Shown piece by piece: positions 2,788 through 11,741 of a stretch of DNA of 64,000 nucleotides. The stretch lies in the NCBI RefSeq assembly GCF_056712565.1, contig NZ_CM160072.1. The stretch is one strand, 5' to 3'. Numbering within the stretch: the stretch's first letter is position 1; every line of letters begins with the position of its first letter. Position numbers and translations under genes: made by a program. The notes under the pieces were generated by a model. It was given only the letters and a program-made list of their open reading frames with translations, made no database searches and was not told the origin of the DNA.

Positions 2788-2944
2788 CCATCATGTTTGT
2801 GTGGGGTCTTTTCTGTATCTTACGCATCGCACTCAAGCCTGACAGAAAATATGCTGTAAGGCTCATATCAAAAACCGCCATTAGCTCATCAGGAAGAGCA
2901 GACGACAACCAGGATTGTTGTATGGTACGGGGTTCGAGGCCTCG

Positions 2945-3190
2945 ATGGCGGTCCAACTTTTCAAAACTCTTCTGAATCAGATCCCCTTATTTTCATCCCT
3001 GCAAAGTGGAACATTGCCATTGTTTGGCTATTCAGGACGGGTCAGAGCAATGAAAAAAGCCCACACAGGGGAGAGTGGGCTGAAATGGGAAGCTAAAGAC
3101 TCAAGTAAACTTATCGGAAATAAGGACCACGCATTACGGGGGCTATCATCGCCGATGGTCGGGATTCGGCAAATCAGGTTGATTACGTAG
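2945..3190 (+). CDS. yahM: Small hypothetical protein (81 aa)
   Basis: ATG at 2945 inside a longer TTG-initiated ORF; ends 17 bp before convergent yahN stop, matching the K-12 arrangement as I recall it. Confidence 0.35.
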   Translation: MAVQLFKTLLNQIPLFSSLQSGTLPLFGYSGRVRAMKKAHTGESGLKWEAKDSSKLIGNKDHALRGLSSPMVGIRQIRLIT

Positions 3191-3206
3191 AGAGTAAATT
3201 ATCTGC

Positions 3207-3878
3207 TCACCGCTGCGTCACCCCTTCGTAAATCAGGCGTAGCGCGAATACACCAATAATTGCACCAATAACCCGACTGGCAACGCGTTGCATACGCCCA
3301 TAAGCACGACGCACTGCGGGCAAAGAAAACGCCTGACTAAGAAAGACTCGCCAGATAATTGATGCGAGCACAATCCCCGCCCAGGCCATTAAACGTGCCC
3401 ATGTTGGTGTTTCGGCATTTAATGTTACTGAGAAAATACTGATAAAAAATAAAACGGTTTGCGGGTTAGAGAGATCGGTAATTAATCCACGGCGGAAAAA
3501 GACATACCAGGGGGCACTAATCGGTTGTTGTAGTGTGCTCATCTGCGGTGTTGACTGGCGGCGCATGCTACACCACGCAAACCATAAGAGATAAGCGCCG
3601 CCGACGATTCTGATAAGCGAAAAAATCTCCTCACACTGCGTAATTAGCGTTGCAAGACCAAACAAACCCAACCCGGAATAAAACGCATCGCCCAGCGCCA
3701 CGCCCAGTCCGGTCAGCACCCCTGCGCGTCGACCGGAAGCCAGGCTGGTTTGTACTACCACAAAGAGATTGGCTCCCGGATTAAAAAAAGTAATCACGAA
3801 CAGTCCTACGGTCAGATAAACGGCGTGCAAAGGATCCATAGTGATTTCATCCATAAATAAGTGAAGTAACTTCATCAT
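3207..3878 (-). CDS. yahN: LysE/RhtB-family amino acid exporter
   Basis: 223-aa multi-TM ORF, minus strand; size and position match yahN. Confidence 0.75.
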   Translation of the reverse strand: MMKLLHLFMDEITMDPLHAVYLTVGLFVITFFNPGANLFVVVQTSLASGRRAGVLTGLGVALGDAFYSGLGLFGLATLITQCEEIFSLIRIVGGAYLLWFAWCSMRRQSTPQMSTLQQPISAPWYVFFRRGLITDLSNPQTVLFFISIFSVTLNAETPTWARLMAWAGIVLASIIWRVFLSQAFSLPAVRRAYGRMQRVASRVIGAIIGVFALRLIYEGVTQR

Positions 3879-4024
3879 ATTTCTACCAAAAATAATCGGG
3901 TGCGAGAGAGATCACAAAGTGTCTTATTTCCGGTTACTGGCGTTTATGCCCTGACTGAACTAATTATTAATCAACCCAATAATGTGGGTGGGTGATAGTG
4001 TGATAACAACTCTGGAGCCGTAAT

Positions 4025-4300
4025 ATGAAAATAATCTCTAAAATGTTAGTCGGTGCGTTAGCGTTTGCCGTTACCAATGTCTATGCCGCAGAATTAATGA
4101 CCAAAGCGGAATTTGAAAAGGTTGAATCGCAATATGAAAAAATAGGTGATATTTCAACCAGCAATGAAATGTCGACCGCAGATGCGAAAGAAGATTTGAT
4201 CAAAAAAGCGGATGAAAAAGGGGCTGATGTGTTGGTGCTGACCTCTGGTCAAACTGACAATAAGATTCACGGCACGGCAAATATTTATAAGAAGAAGTAA
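4025..4300 (+). CDS. yahO: Small periplasmic protein (DUF1471/YdgH-BhsA family)
   Basis: 91-aa ORF with signal peptide [21 protein letters not shown] and lysine-rich mature part. Confidence 0.7.
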
Positions 4301-4400
4301 TTCTGAAACCTATGTAAACATCCCCGATGCGTAAGTTTATCGGTGATCATCATCTATTGAAATTTATGCCGGATAAAGCGTTCGCGCTGCATTCGGCAGT

Positions 4401-5987
4401 TCAGTTTTTCAGCCGCCGCCAGAAGGTCGTCCGGCTTATGCCTAAATAATTCGCCGCTGCTGTTTTATCGCCTTTAAATTTCTCCAGTGCCTGTTGTGGT
4501 GTCAGCAAGCGTGGAGCGGGAGTTTTCGCTGACTCGCGCGCCAGCTCCGGCAGTAGCAGCTGCAAAAATTGCGGCGTTAAATCCGGCGTCGGTTCCACAC
4601 TTAAAAACAGCGCCAGTCGCTCCATCATATTGCGCAGTTCACGAATATTGCCCGGCCAGTCGTAGTGCACCAGCACGGTTTCGCTTGCCTGTAATCCCTG
4701 GCGTAATGCGGCAGAAAACGGGGCGGAGAGCGCCGCCAGAGACACTTTCAAAAAGCTTTCCGCCAGCGGCAGAATATCCGTCACCCGCTCGCGCAGTGGT
4801 GGCAATTGCAGACGCAAAATACTCAGCCGATAAAACAGATCACGGCGAAACTGCCCTTGCCGCATATCTTCTTCCAGATTGCAGTGAGTGGCGCTAATGA
4901 CTCGCACATCCACCGGAACAGGCTGATGCCCGCCGACGCGGGTGACCTCTTTTTCTTCCAGCACCCGCAGCAGCCGAGTCTGCAACGGCAGCGGCATTTC
5001 GCCTATCTCGTCAAGAAACAGCGTGCCACCGTGGGCGATTTCGAACAGCCCGGCGCGACCTCCGCGTCGCGAGCCGGTGAACGCCCCTTCCTCATAGCCA
5101 AACAGCTCTGCTTCCAGCAACGATTCGGCAATCGCCCCGCAGTTGACGGCAACAAACGGATGCGACTTTTTGCCCTGTCGCGCATCGTGGCGGGCAAAAT
5201 ATTCCCGATGAATCGCCTGGGCCGCCAGCTCTTTGCCCGTCCCCGTTTCCCCCTCAATCAACACCGCTGCACTGGAGCGGGCATACAGCAAAATAGTCTG
5301 CCGCACCTGTTCCATCTGTGGTGATTGACCGAGCATATCGCCCAGCACGTAACGAGTACGCAGGGCGTTACGGGTGGCATCGTGAGTGTTATGGCGTAAC
5401 GACATGCGCGTCATATCCAGCGCATCGCTGAATGCCTGGCGCACGGTGGCGGCGGAATAGATAAAAATTCCGGTCATTCCGGCTTCTTCTGCCAGATCGG
5501 TAATCAGCCCCGCACCGACCACCGCTTCGGTGCCGTTAGCTTTTAGCTCGTTAATCTGCCCGCGTGCGTCTTCCTCGGTAATGTAGCTACGTTGATCGAG
5601 GCGCAAATTAAAGGTTTTTTGAAACGCCACCAGTGCCGGAATAGTTTCCTGATAAGTGACAACGCCGATAGAAGAGGTGAGTTTTCCGGCTTTTGCCAGT
5701 GCCTGTAACACATCGTAGCCGCTCGGTTTAATCAAAATAACTGGCACTGACAGGCGGCTTTTCAGATACGCGCCGTTAGAGCCAGCGGCAATGATGGCGT
5801 CACAGCGTTCGCTTGCCAGTTTCTTGCGGATGTAGGTCACCGCTTTTTCAAAGCCAAGCTGAATAGGGGTGATATTCGCCAGGTGATCAAACTCGAGACT
5901 GATATCGCGAAACAGCTCGAACAGGCGCGTTACCGATACCGTCCAGATAACCGGTTTGTCGTCATTAAGCCGTGGTGGATGTGCCAT
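4401..5987 (-). CDS. prpR: Sigma54-dependent transcriptional activator of the propionate operon
   Basis: Start taken at [10 protein letters not shown] (ORF track begins 4 codons earlier); AAA+ sigma54-interaction motifs GETGTGKE and GAFTGS, C-terminal HTH; divergent from prpB. Confidence 0.9.
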
Positions 5988-6030
5988 AGCGCACCGCAAA
6001 GTTAAGAAACCGAATATTGGGTTTAGCCTT

Positions 6031-6088
6031 GTTTCATAATTGTTGCAATGAAACGCGGTGAAACATTGCCTGAAACGTTAACTGAAAC
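6031..6088 (+). promoter_or_regulatory. Array of TGAAAC hexamers (one inverted, four direct at about 10-12 bp spacing); candidate PrpR enhancer
   Basis: gtttca at 6031 then tgaaac at 6049, 6059, 6071 and 6083, located 80-130 bp upstream of the sigma54 promoter. Confidence 0.35.
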
Positions 6089-6163
6089 GCATTTTTGCGG
6101 ATTACTTCATGACTTTATCTCTAACAAATTGAAATTAAACATTTAATTTTATTCAGTCAATTG

Positions 6164-6178
6164 TGGCACACCCCTTGC
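6164..6178 (+). promoter_or_regulatory. Sigma54 (-24/-12) promoter of prpBCDE
   Basis: TGGCAC-N5-TTGC (tggcacaccccttgc), 48 bp upstream of prpB ATG; fits the sigma54 consensus and PrpR being an enhancer-binding protein. Confidence 0.7.
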
Positions 6179-6225
6179 TTTGTCTTTATCAACGCAAATA
6201 ACAAGTTGATAACAAAGGATGGGCT

Positions 6226-7116
6226 ATGTCTCTACACTCTCCAGGTAAAGCGTTTCGCGCTGCACTGTCTAAAGAAAATCCATTGCAGATTGTTGGCACC
6301 ATTAACGCCAACCATGCGCTGTTGGCGCAGCGTGCCGGATATCAGGCAATTTATCTCTCCGGCGGTGGCGTGGCGGCAGGGTCGCTGGGGCTGCCCGATC
6401 TCGGTATTTCTACTCTTGATGACGTGCTGACAGATATTCGCCGTATCACCGACGTTTGTTCGCTGCCGCTGCTGGTGGATGCGGATATCGGTTTTGGTTC
6501 TTCTGCTTTTAACGTGGCGCGCACCGTGAAATCGATGATTAAAGCCGGTGCGGCAGGATTGCATATTGAAGATCAGGTTGGTGCGAAACGCTGCGGTCAT
6601 CGCCCGAACAAAGCGATCGTCTCGAAAGAGGAGATGGTGGATCGGATCCGCGCGGCGGTGGATGCGAAAACCGATCCTGATTTTGTGATCATGGCGCGCA
6701 CCGATGCGCTGGCGGTAGAGGGGCTGGACGCCGCGATCGAGCGTGCGCAGGCCTATGTTGAAGCGGGTGCCGAGATGTTGTTCCCGGAGGCGATTACCGA
6801 ACTCGCCATGTACCGCCAGTTTGCCGATGCGGTGCAGGTGCCGATCCTCGCTAACATTACCGAATTTGGTGCCACGCCGCTGTTTACTACCGATGAATTA
6901 CGCAGTGCCCATGTTGCAATGGCGCTGTACCCGCTTTCAGCGTTCCGTGCCATGAACCGCGCCGCTGAACATGTCTACAACGTCCTGCGTCAGGAAGGCA
7001 CGCAGAAAAGCGTCATCGACACCATGCAGACCCGCAACGAGCTGTACGAAAGCATCAACTACTACCAGTACGAAGAGAAGCTCGACGACCTGTTTGCCCG
7101 TAACCAGGCGAAATAA
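6226..7116 (+). CDS. prpB: 2-methylisocitrate lyase
   Basis: 296-aa ORF, isocitrate lyase/PEP mutase family; first gene of prp operon. Confidence 0.92.
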
Positions 7117-7160
7117 AACACAACGAAAAATATCTCGACCCTACAAATGACGAGGACAAC

Positions 7161-8330
7161 ATGAGCGACACAACGATCCTGCAAAACAGTACCCATGTCA
7201 TTAAACCGAAAAAATCGGTGGCGCTTTCTGGCGTTCCGGCGGGCAATACGGCGCTCTGCACCGTGGGTAAAAGTGGCAATGACTTGCATTACCGTGGCTA
7301 CGATATTCTTGATCTGGCGGCACATTGCGAATTTGAAGAAGTGGCGCATCTGCTGATCCACGGCAAACTGCCGACCCGTGACGAACTTGCCGCCTACAAA
7401 ACGAAACTGAAAGCCCTGCGCGGTTTACCGGCTAACGTGCGTACTGTGCTGGAAGCCTTACCAGCGGCGTCGCACCCGATGGATGTTATGCGCACCGGCG
7501 TTTCCGCGCTCGGCTGCACACTGCCGGAAAAAGAGGGGCACACTGTATCTGGTGCGCGGGATATTGCCGACAAACTGCTGGCGTCACTTAGCTCGATTCT
7601 TCTCTACTGGTATCACTACAGCCATAACGGCGAACGCATCCAGCCGGAAACTGATGACGACTCTATCGGCGGTCACTTCCTGCATCTGCTGCACGGCGAA
7701 AAGCCGTCGCCAAGCTGGGAAAAGGCGATGCATATCTCGCTGGTGCTGTACGCCGAACACGAGTTTAACGCTTCCACCTTTACCAGCCGGGTGATTGCGG
7801 GCACTGGCTCTGATATGTATTCCGCGATTATTGGCGCGATTGGCGCACTGCGCGGACCGAAACACGGCGGGGCGAATGAAGTGTCGCTGGAGATCCAGCA
7901 ACGCTACGAAACGCCGGACGAAGCCGAAGCAGATATCCGCAAGCGGGTGGAAAACAAAGAAGTGGTCATTGGTTTTGGGCATCCGGTTTATACCATCGCC
8001 GACCCGCGCCACCAGGTGATCAAACGCGTGGCAAAGCAGCTCTCGCAGGAAGGCGGCTCGCTGAAGATGTACAACATCGCCGATCGCCTGGAAACAGTGA
8101 TGTGGGAGAGCAAAAAGATGTTCCCCAATCTCGACTGGTTCTCCGCTGTTTCCTACAACATGATGGGTGTTCCCACCGAGATGTTCACACCACTGTTTGT
8201 TATCGCCCGCGTCACCGGCTGGGCGGCGCACATTATCGAACAACGTCAGGACAACAAAATTATCCGTCCTTCCGCCAATTATGTTGGACCGGAAGACCGC
8301 CAGTTTGTCGCGCTGGATAAGCGCCAGTAA
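7161..8330 (+). CDS. prpC: 2-methylcitrate synthase
   Basis: 389-aa ORF, citrate synthase family (GFGHPVY motif). Confidence 0.92.
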
Positions 8331-8363
8331 ACCTCTACGAATAACAATAAGGAAACGTACCCA

Positions 8364-9815
8364 ATGTCAGCTCAAATCAACAACATTCGCCCGGAATTTG
8401 ATCGTGAAATCGTTGATATCGTCGATTACGTGATGAACTACGAAATCAGCTCCAGAGTAGCCTACGACACCGCACATTACTGCCTGCTCGACACGCTCGG
8501 CTGCGGTCTTGAAGCTCTCGAATACCCAGCCTGTAAAAAACTGCTGGGGCCAATTGTCCCCGGCACCGTCGTCCCCAACGGCGTGCGCGTCCCCGGAACT
8601 CAGTTCCAGCTCGACCCCGTCCAGGCGGCATTTAACATCGGCGCGATGATCCGCTGGCTCGATTTCAACGATACCTGGCTGGCGGCGGAGTGGGGGCATC
8701 CTTCCGACAACCTCGGCGGCATTCTGGCAACGGCGGACTGGCTTTCGCGCAACGCGATCGCCAGCGGCAAAGCGCCGTTGACCATGAAACAGGTGCTGAC
8801 CGGAATGATCAAAGCCCATGAAATTCAGGGCTGCATCGCGCTGGAAAACTCCTTTAACCGCGTTGGTCTCGACCACGTTCTGTTAGTGAAAGTGGCTTCC
8901 ACCGCCGTGGTCGCCGAAATGCTCGGCCTGACCCGCGAGGAAATTCTCAACGCCGTTTCGCTGGCATGGGTAGACGGACAGTCGCTGCGCACTTATCGTC
9001 ATGCACCGAACACCGGTACGCGTAAATCCTGGGCGGCGGGCGATGCCACGTCCCGCGCGGTACGTCTGGCGCTGATGGCGAAAACGGGCGAAATGGGTTA
9101 CCCGTCAGCTCTGACCGCGCCGGTGTGGGGTTTCTACGACGTCTCCTTTAAAGGTGAGTCGTTCCGCTTCCAGCGCCCGTACGGTTCTTACGTCATGGAA
9201 AATGTGCTGTTCAAAATCTCCTTTCCGGCGGAGTTCCACTCCCAGACGGCAGTTGAAGCAGCGATGACGCTCTATGAACAGATGCAGGCAGCAGGCAAAA
9301 CGGCGGCGGATATCGAAAAAGTGACCATTCGCACCCACGAAGCCTGTATTCGCATCATCGACAAAAAAGGGCCGCTCAATAACCCGGCTGACCGCGACCA
9401 CTGCATTCAGTACATGGTGGCGATCCCGCTGCTGTTCGGGCGCTTAACGGCGGCAGATTACGAGGACAACGTTGCGCAAGATAAACGCATTGACGCCCTG
9501 CGCGAGAAGATCAATTGCTTTGAAGATCCGGCATTTACTGCTGACTACCACGACCCGGAAAAACGCGCCATCGCCAATGCCATTACCCTTGAGTTCACCG
9601 ACGGCACGCGCTTTGAAGAAGTGGTGGTGGAGTACCCCATTGGTCATGCTCGCCGCCGTCAGGATGGCATTCCGAAACTGGTCGATAAATTCAAAATCAA
9701 TCTCGCGCGCCAGTTCCCGACTCGCCAGCAGCAGCGCATTCTGGAGGTTTCTCTCGACAGAACTCGCCTGGAACAGATGCCGGTCAATGAGTATCTCGAC
9801 CTGTACGTCATTTAA
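8364..9815 (+). CDS. prpD: 2-methylcitrate dehydratase
   Basis: 483-aa ORF, MmgE/PrpD family; operon context. Confidence 0.92.
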
Positions 9816-9854
9816 GTAAACGGCGGTAAGGCGTAAGTTCAACAGGAGAGCATT

Positions 9855-11741
9855 ATGTCTTTTAGCGAATTTTATCAGCGTTCGATTAACGAACCGGAGC
9901 AGTTCTGGGCCGAGCAGGCCCGGCGTATTGACTGGCAGACGCCCTTTACGCAAACGCTCGACCACAGCAACCCGCCGTTTGCCCGTTGGTTTTGTGAAGG
10001 CCGAACCAACTTGTGTCACAACGCTATCGATCGCTGGCTGGAGAAACAGCCAGAGGCGCTGGCATTGATTGCCGTCTCTTCGGAAACAGAGGAAGAGCGT
10101 ACCTTTACCTTTCGTCAGCTGCATGACGAAGTGAACGCGGTGGCCTCAATGTTGCGTTCATTGGGGGTGCAGCGTGGCGATCGGGTGCTGGTGTATATGC
10201 CGATGATTGCCGAAGCGCATATTACTCTGCTGGCCTGCGCGCGTATTGGCGCTATTCACTCGGTGGTGTTTGGTGGATTTGCCTCGCACAGCGTGGCGGC
10301 GCGAATTGATGATGCTAAACCGGTGCTGATTGTCTCGGCTGATGCCGGAGCGCGCGGTGGCAAAATCATTCCCTATAAAAAATTACTCGACGATGCGATA
10401 AGTCAGGCGCAGCATCAGCCGCGCCACGTTTTACTGGTGGATCGCGGACTGGCGAAAATGGCGCGCGTCAGCGGGCGGGATGTCGATTTCGCGTCGTTGC
10501 GCCATCAACACATCGGTGCGCGGGTGCCGGTGGCGTGGCTGGAATCCAACGAAACCTCCTGCATTCTCTACACCTCCGGCACGACCGGCAAACCTAAAGG
10601 TGTGCAGCGTGATGTCGGCGGATATGCGGTGGCGCTGGCGACCTCGATGGACACCATTTTTGGCGGCAAAGCGGGCGGCGTGTTCTTTTGTGCTTCGGAT
10701 ATCGGCTGGGTGGTAGGGCATTCGTATATCGTTTACGCGCCGCTGCTGGCGGGGATGGCGACTATCGTTTACGAAGGATTGCCGACCTGGCCGGACTGCG
10801 GCGTGTGGTGGAAAATTGTCGAGAAATATCAGGTTAGCCGCATGTTCTCAGCGCCGACCGCCATTCGCGTGCTGAAAAAATTCCCTACCGCTGAAATTCG
10901 CAAACACGATCTTTCGTCGCTGGAAGTGCTCTATCTGGCTGGAGAACCGCTGGATGAGCCGACCGCCAGTTGGGTGAGCAATACGCTGGATGTGCCGGTC
11001 ATCGACAACTACTGGCAGACCGAATCCGGCTGGCCGATTATGGCGATTGCTCGCGGTCTGGATGACAGGCCGACGCGTCTGGGAAGCCCCGGCGTGCCGA
11101 TGTATGGCTATAACGTGCAGTTGCTCAATGAAGTCACCGGCGAACCGTGTGGCGTCAATGAGAAAGGGATGCTGGTAGTGGAGGGGCCATTGCCGCCAGG
11201 CTGTATTCAGACCATCTGGGGCGACGACGACCGCTTTGTGAAGACGTACTGGTCGCTGTTTTCCCGTCCGGTGTACGCCACTTTTGACTGGGGCATCCGC
11301 GATGCTGACGGTTATCACTTTATTCTCGGGCGCACTGACGATGTGATTAACGTTGCCGGACATCGGCTGGGTACGCGTGAGATTGAAGAGAGTATCTCCA
11401 GTCATCCGGGCGTTGCCGAAGTGGCGGTGGTTGGGGTGAAAGATGCGCTGAAAGGGCAGGTGGCGGTGGCGTTTGTCATTCCGAAAGAGAGCGACAGTCT
11501 GGAAGACCGTGAGGTGGCGCACTTGCAAGAGAAGGCAATTATGGCGCTGGTAGACAGCCAGATTGGCAACTTTGGCCGCCCGGCGCACGTCTGGTTTGTC
11601 TCGCAATTGCCAAAAACGCGATCCGGAAAAATGCTGCGCCGCACGATCCAGGCGATTTGCGAAGGACGCGATCCTGGGGATCTGACGACCATTGATGATC
11701 CGGCGTCGTTGGATCAGATCCGCCAGGCGATGGAAGAGTAG
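9855..11741 (+). CDS. prpE: Propionyl-CoA synthetase
   Basis: 628-aa ORF, acyl-CoA synthetase AMP-binding motif YTSGTTGKPKG. Confidence 0.92.
   Translation: MSFSEFYQRSINEPEQFWAEQARRIDWQTPFTQTLDHSNPPFARWFCEGRTNLCHNAIDRWLEKQPEALALIAVSSETEEERTFTFRQLHDEVNAVASMLRSLGVQRGDRVLVYMPMIAEAHITLLACARIGAIHSVVFGGFASHSVAARIDDAKPVLIVSADAGARGGKIIPYKKLLDDAISQAQHQPRHVLLVDRGLAKMARVSGRDVDFASLRHQHIGARVPVAWLESNETSCILYTSGTTGKPKGVQRDVGGYAVALATSMDTIFGGKAGGVFFCASDIGWVVGHSYIVYAPLLAGMATIVYEGLPTWPDCGVWWKIVEKYQVSRMFSAPTAIRVLKKFPTAEIRKHDLSSLEVLYLAGEPLDEPTASWVSNTLDVPVIDNYWQTESGWPIMAIARGLDDRPTRLGSPGVPMYGYNVQLLNEVTGEPCGVNEKGMLVVEGPLPPGCIQTIWGDDDRFVKTYWSLFSRPVYATFDWGIRDADGYHFILGRTDDVINVAGHRLGTREIEESISSHPGVAEVAVVGVKDALKGQVAVAFVIPKESDSLEDREVAHLQEKAIMALVDSQIGNFGRPAHVWFVSQLPKTRSGKMLRRTIQAICEGRDPGDLTTIDDPASLDQIRQAMEE

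Follow-up and report, generated by a model that had tools for sequence, protein, structure and literature searches.

The cluster of TGAAAC hexamers at 6031-6088 of the window, the 64-kb stretch of Escherichia coli chromosome analysed here (64,000 nucleotides), is very probably the upstream activating sequence, or enhancer, for PrpR, with TGAAAC/GTTTCA as the recognition half-site. The feature is already known as the control region of the E. coli propionate operon, and it is an ordinary one, because the repeat is the half-site of PrpR's published binding sequence. Judged from an alignment of 12 taxa, the E. coli "array of five" appears as the Escherichia version of this known enhancer, with one half-site degraded and the two near-sites flanking it turned into perfect copies.

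The array lies in the spacer between the divergent prpR and prpBCDE (5988-6225). The surrounding 5700-6500 matches E. coli ATCC 11775 and further strains at 100% identity and is found in 5,223 of 5,426 complete genomes. Gene names follow the RefSeq annotation of the ATCC 11775 record, which was matched at 100% across the queried 5700-6500 only. The genes of the locus are:

4401-5987, minus strand: prpR coding sequence, 528 aa (open reading frame list, Pfam, RefSeq annotation).
6226-7116, plus strand: prpB, 2-methylisocitrate lyase (open reading frame list, RefSeq; match to PDB 1MUM, E = 3e-189).
7161-8330, plus strand: prpC (open reading frame list, RefSeq annotation).
8364-9815, plus strand: prpD (open reading frame list, RefSeq annotation).
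9855-11741, plus strand: prpE (open reading frame list, RefSeq annotation).

PrpR has the domain order PrpR_N, Sigma54_activat (Pfam, E = 1.5e-65) and HTH_8 (Fis-type), the make-up predicted of the cognate AAA+ enhancer-binding protein for a sigma-54 promoter. Together, prpC, prpD and prpE (7161-11741, plus strand) form the remainder of the operon under the -24/-12 promoter. The gap between prpB and prpC (7117-7160) is 44 bp here versus 439 bp in K-12 (349573-350011), in agreement with the variable repeat content published for this interval.

Within the spacer, the hexamers and their near relatives are arranged as follows:

6031-6036, minus strand: H1, GTTTCA on the plus strand and so TGAAAC on the minus strand; unchanged in 12/12 Enterobacteriaceae.
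6042-6047, minus strand: variant hexamer GTTGCA, one mismatch; unchanged in 12/12 Enterobacteriaceae, and likely the prpR -35 element.
6049-6054, plus strand: H2, TGAAAC; kept in 11/12 taxa, TAAAAC in Kluyvera.
6059-6064, plus strand: H3, TGAAAC; perfect only in E. coli and E. marmotae.
6065-6070, minus strand: ATTGCC, degenerate left half of a GTTTCA/TGAAAC palindrome, from gap-free alignment with the Salmonella sequence.
6071-6077, plus strand: H4, TGAAACG; in 12/12 taxa, and the right half of the published PrpR consensus.
6083-6088, plus strand: H5, TGAAAC; TGACAC in all eight non-Escherichia taxa.

The variant GTTGCA and H2 make a near-dyad, GTTGCA-A-TGAAAC. Five exact hexamers fall within 58 bp, and the five together with two near-hexamers lie 75-133 bp upstream of the TGGCAC element, which places several half-sites at enhancer distance from a -24/-12 promoter. 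The positions that the initial annotation gave for the hexamers and for that promoter are all exact to the base. Over the window as a whole the hexamer shows no enrichment (48 copies, 39.4 ± 5.9 expected), and its clustering far exceeds chance: 2000 dinucleotide-preserving shuffles of the window produced at most three copies within 58 bp and never four or five, a Poisson estimate gives about 5e-6 clusters of such size per window, and five copies did not occur in any of 20,000 shuffles of the 238-bp spacer by itself.

The initial annotation doubted that the repeat is a defined PrpR site. That doubt was misplaced, as the motif is in the literature: the table of a review (PMC4987338, Table 1) gives CGTTTCATGAAACG as the PrpR enhancer of Salmonella, citing the footprinting of Palacios and Escalante-Semerena (2004). 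This sequence is an inverted pair of the TGAAAC hexamer, that is, two half-sites. Salmonella loci were reached from the PrpB sequence of PDB 1O5Q through identical Salmonella PrpB proteins to their contigs, and S. Typhimurium DNA contains cGTTTCATGAAACg verbatim (retrieved locus L083, 1314-1327). This palindrome aligns without gaps onto E. coli 6064-6077, so that the comparison with the Salmonella prp enhancer, put forward earlier as a check, returns the same hexamer at the orthologous position. The full consensus CGTTTCATGAAACG is not matched in the E. coli spacer, where only the right half, TGAAACG (6071-6077), is present and the left half, ATTGCC, agrees at 3/6 positions. Every one of the E. 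coli hexamers is a putative PrpR contact, the two at 6059 and 6083 most tentatively so. In E. coli Nissle, a promoter part opening with gtcttGTTTCA, and so taking in 5 bp ahead of H1, functions as a PrpR/propionate sensor (PMC9452892). The initial reading of the region, a sigma-54 promoter with a multimeric PrpR site made of TGAAAC, thus gains support from the Salmonella consensus, the orthologous position, the sensor part, and the arrays found elsewhere that are described below.

Since TGAAAC followed by G is the left half of the Cra (FruR) box, the TGAAACG repeats could instead be Cra operators. According to PMC5829826, genomic SELEX (Shimada 2011) lists a Cra site for the prpB regulatory region, and RSTGAAWCSNTHHW matches 6081-6094 with one mismatch and 6069-6082 with two. 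However, the window holds 16 one-mismatch Cra matches, which is chance level, so such matches carry little information, and the palindromic Cra box GCTGAAACGTTTCAGC has no match at five or fewer mismatches. What is conserved across genera is the everted GTTTCA/TGAAAC and not the Cra arrangement TGAAAC/GTTTCA, and purified Cra gave no shift of prpB DNA (PMC5829826). We reject Cra operators on the negative gel shift and the chance-level matches, and consider them highly improbable; the hexamers are best read as PrpR half-sites.

How the E. coli enhancer differs from that of Salmonella can be followed in an alignment of E. coli (two strains), E. albertii, E. marmotae, three Salmonella subspecies, four Citrobacter and Kluyvera. 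From H1 to past H5 these 12 taxa align without gaps. The distal element GTTTCA-taaWTGTTGCAA-TGAAAC (6031-6054) is nearly invariant and the distance from H2 to H4 is 22 bp in all 12, while the 10 bp 3' of H2 vary. Salmonella and four of the five Citrobacter/Kluyvera taxa carry the whole palindrome; in the four Escherichia its left half reads ATTGYC or AGTGTC instead. Position 6059 reads TGAAAT in E. albertii and TGATTC in S. Typhimurium and is variable elsewhere. Across genera, then, only the hexamers at 6031, 6049 and 6071 are conserved among the five exact copies, those at 6059 and 6083 being perfect only in Escherichia, and it is this pattern that marks the array as an Escherichia version of the known enhancer.

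Within E. coli, 5,218 genomes show an identity of 95% or more over the 70 bp of the array region, and K-12 and the lowest-identity E. coli variants sampled keep all five hexamers intact, with substitutions only in the spacers between them. The prpR-prpB spacer of the window differs from that of K-12 only at 6027, 6093, 6105 and 6154-6156, none of these in a hexamer or in the -24/-12 element. One sampled strain, E. coli TB354 (NZ_AP038814.1, locus L093), has a 12-bp tandem duplication of CTGAAACGTTAA, aligning with 6070-6081 of the window, that creates a sixth TGAAAC.

Tandem duplication raises the prospect that the direct repeats are a neutral slippage product of the 12-bp unit and have no function: H4 and H5 lie within a two-copy 12-bp tandem repeat, and TB354 has a third copy and six hexamers. 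At the same positions, however, other genera hold a point-diverged TGAAACGTTAGCTGACACG that is invariant among them, which makes substitution, not duplication, the origin of H5; for this hexamer slippage is rejected on the cross-genus alignment. Moreover, H3 is outside the 12-bp unit, and within E. coli the hexamers are invariant while the spacers vary. We give functionless slippage almost no credence, less even than Cra, and retain the PrpR enhancer as the explanation of the direct repeats.

The initial annotation also placed the hexamers on one face of the DNA, which holds approximately. The plus-strand hexamers at 6049, 6059, 6071 and 6083 are spaced by 10, 12 and 12 bp, roughly one turn each, and H2 and H4 are two turns apart, so that a common face may be presumed in a loose sense. 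The offsets of 0, 10, 22 and 34 bp nevertheless accumulate about 85 degrees of helical drift over the four sites, and a single face is for this reason only approximate. Nor is strict phasing with the promoter kept, since the array-to-promoter distance differs between genera (93, 103-104 or 117-118 bp) and is no strict multiple of the helical turn.

Downstream of the array lie a candidate IHF site and the promoter:

6122-6134, minus strand: best candidate IHF site TTTCAATTTGTTA, one mismatch to WATCAANNNNTTR, in AT-rich DNA between the array and the promoter.
6164-6178, plus strand: prpBCDE sigma-54 -24/-12 promoter, TGGCAC-N5-TTGC, TGGCACACCCCTTGC, ending 47 nt before the prpB ATG (6226).

The match to gTGGCACaccccTTGCt at 6164-6178 is the only -24/-12 match in the 64-kb window, but at least one such match occurs in 29/100 shuffles and the lone match is therefore not significant by itself. 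The element is credible because of its position, its conservation and a published SELEX peak. Its GG and GC are 10 bp apart, as the sigma-54 consensus YTGGCACG-N4-TTGCW demands; TGGCA[CT]-N5-TTGC is kept in all 12 aligned Enterobacteriaceae and at 9/12 more distant PrpR-orthologue loci examined, upstream of prpB where prpB is adjacent; and a genomic SELEX peak of RpoN holoenzyme lies, in vitro, within the K-12 prpR/prpB spacer (PMC8743547). The conserved alignment columns T.TAA......TG fit the TTR and CA positions of the candidate IHF site at 6122-6134. The prpB 5' leader contains a perfect IHF consensus TATCAACTTGTTA on the minus strand (6199-6211) and an inverted repeat ATCAAC...GTTGAT (within 6188-6214), both conserved in Escherichia, Citrobacter and Kluyvera and not in Salmonella. 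As an RNA hairpin, the inverted repeat was discarded, its fold being no better than that of shuffled sequences (z = -0.93).

The architecture is the classical one of upstream activating sequence, predicted IHF bend and -24/-12 promoter. In Salmonella, expression of prpBCDE needs PrpR, sigma-54 and IHF, with 2-methylcitrate as co-activator, and the E. coli promoters PprpB and PprpR are reported to depend on CRP. In the corresponding E. coli scheme, 2-methylcitrate formed from propionate would relieve the inhibition exerted by the PrpR_N domain, and oligomers of PrpR would be bound some 75-135 bp ahead of TGGCAC, the -24 element, roughly -100 to -160 if transcription is assumed to start near 6190. 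Bending of the AT-rich DNA around 6122-6134 by IHF would let PrpR contact the closed complex of sigma-54 RNA polymerase at TGGCAC-N5-TTGC, with ATP spent on its opening, and CRP-cAMP would contribute catabolite control. The NtrC-glnAp2, NorR-norV and NifA-nifH systems likewise have multiple activator sites about 100-150 bp upstream, an IHF-type bend, as predicted for prp, between these and the promoter, a GG-N10-GC promoter and an AAA+ activator with a Fis-type HTH encoded nearby. They use two or three copies of a fixed dyad, whereas E. coli prp has 6-bp half-sites in mixed orientation and at variable spacing, GTTTCA copies coming first and TGAAAC copies after them. A secondary statement in PMC9452892 has it that mutating a CRP site that overlaps the PrpR operator abolished regulation by PrpR; in a scan with the CRP consensus the best sites had 3-4 mismatches, and no convincing match lay inside the hexamer array.

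The prpR-proximal end of the array is shared with other signals:

6022-6048, minus strand: prpR sigma-70 promoter part (K-12 ttgcaacaattatgaaacaagactaaa), 27 nt, from the supplement of PMC9452892 and mapped by sequence.
6031-6048, minus strand: PhoB ChIP-chip/MEME motif TTGCAACAATTATGAAAC (PMC3465305, Table 2), two 7-mers at an 11-bp period.

A sigma-70 promoter scan of 5900-6300 gave 0 matches, and the prpR promoter is placed from the published part alone. That part includes H1 and the TTGCAA/GTTGCA element, and the correspondence of the published wild-type part to 6022-6048 puts H1 within the prpR core promoter. At 6027, inside the promoter part, the window departs from K-12, and this may be the prpR "-10 box" polymorphism reported for a Crohn's-disease isolate (PMC7360682). 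The centre of the PhoB motif is given as -52.5 from prpR and -186.5 from prpB (PMC3465305), and both values correspond to 6039.5 of the window. The motif coincides with H1, GTTGCA and the prpR promoter part, and PhoB, PrpR and RNA polymerase may compete there. The two 7-mers at an 11-bp period resemble the Pho box CTGTCAT-N4-CTGTCAT, although the match of 6031-6048 to that consensus is weak, reaches no further than the distal part of the array, and bears on prpR, not on the activation of prpB.

These overlaps allow the reading that H1 and GTTGCA (6031-6048) are mainly a PhoB operator and prpR core promoter, conserved for the control of prpR, and that only the promoter-proximal hexamers are the PrpR enhancer. 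The PhoB ChIP-chip motif falls at exactly 6031-6048, and in the same study PhoB-His gave a gel shift and prpR had a log2 expression ratio of -1.9 on the microarray (PMC3465305). In addition, the 27-nt promoter part covers 6022-6048, and the K-12 annotation labels PrpR a dual regulator. Such a role and binding of PrpR are not mutually exclusive, however, and H2-H5 are left unexplained by it. Orthologous arrays with other spacer layouts also start with GTTTCA copies on the prpR side, and the functional PPrp sensor part keeps H1. We regard this restricted enhancer as unlikely, and H1 as a part of the PrpR enhancer. Because the array and the prpR sigma-70 promoter overlap on this side, occupancy by either PrpR or PhoB there could modulate prpR as well.

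Similar arrays are found beside PrpR orthologues in distant taxa. Among the matches listed, at least three exact hexamers lie in the prpR-prpB spacer beside TGGCA[CT]-N5-TTGC at 9/15 full-length PrpR-orthologue loci, while clusters of at least three hexamers were found at 3/65 loci of other sigma-54 activators, one of the three being PrpR_N-type. On these counts, hexamer clusters co-occur with PrpR orthologues across taxa. Arrays are present in Photorhabdus, Massilia, Rugamonas, an Oxalobacteraceae metagenome-assembled genome (MAG) and a Burkholderiaceae MAG, and they follow a common grammar of GTTTCA copies toward prpR and then TGAAAC copies toward prpB, 6-12 bp apart. The clearest is that of the Oxalobacteraceae MAG, with start-to-start spacings of < 7 < 9 > 10 > 10 > 11 >. 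From a spirochaete to Proteobacteria, arrays of 3 to 6 units with variable spacing accompany PrpR_N-type activators. The spirochaete example (Spirochaetae bacterium HGW-Spirochaetae-2 MAG, L023) has a PrpR_N/Sigma54_activat/HTH_8 protein at 2854-4749 and then an array in 4790-4960, in the order GTTTCA three times, TGAAAC twice, about 90 bp of AT-rich DNA, TGGCAT-N5-CTGC and a PdxA-family/TctB operon; here the architecture occurs outside Proteobacteria and outside prp genes. In Massilia (L007, Massilia glaciei; L006), an additional gene separates prpR from prpB, and distinct hexamer clusters lie beside prpR (2904-2921) and beside the -24/-12 promoter of prpB (718-738). The recognition helix of the PrpR HTH, LGISRTT[FL]WR[RK]L, is nearly invariant among proteobacterial orthologues from E. 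coli to Oxalobacteraceae, which is weak evidence since the motif is common to many Fis-type activators.

The closest counterpart remains the prpBCDE enhancer of Salmonella enterica (Palacios and Escalante-Semerena 2000, 2004), which is like that of E. coli in its genes, its divergent layout and its -24/-12 class of promoter. The two systems have in common the activator family and the effector 2-methylcitrate, and both carry GTTTCA-taaWTGTTGCAA-TGAAAC as distal element with, 22 bp further on, the invariant TGAAACG. They differ in that Salmonella has the perfect 14-bp palindrome CGTTTCATGAAACG where E. coli has ATTGCC/TGAAACG with two extra perfect direct hexamers at -12 and +12, and in that the array is 24-25 bp nearer the promoter in Escherichia than in Salmonella.

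Beyond confirmation the importance of these findings is small. The prpR-PprpB cassette is in wide use for propionate-inducible expression and as a biosensor, and the hexamer map, with its conserved sites (6031, 6049, 6071), Escherichia-specific sites (6059, 6083) and overlap with the prpR promoter and PhoB motif, could guide sensor tuning. The Escherichia-specific rearrangement poses a modest question of binding-site turnover and is mainly useful for the tuning of propionate sensors. Tentatively, and with the odds in our view against it, Escherichia could have rebuilt its PrpR enhancer by losing one half of the palindrome and perfecting two direct hexamers one helical turn away, in which case PrpR would read single 6-bp modules with flexible orientation and spacing and not a fixed dyad. 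If so, there may be one 6-bp module for each HTH of the PrpR oligomer, and half-site turnover might account for the roughly three-fold lower strength of the E. coli system relative to that of Salmonella. The comparison of the two is also a small, clean case of binding-site turnover inside a conserved enhancer.
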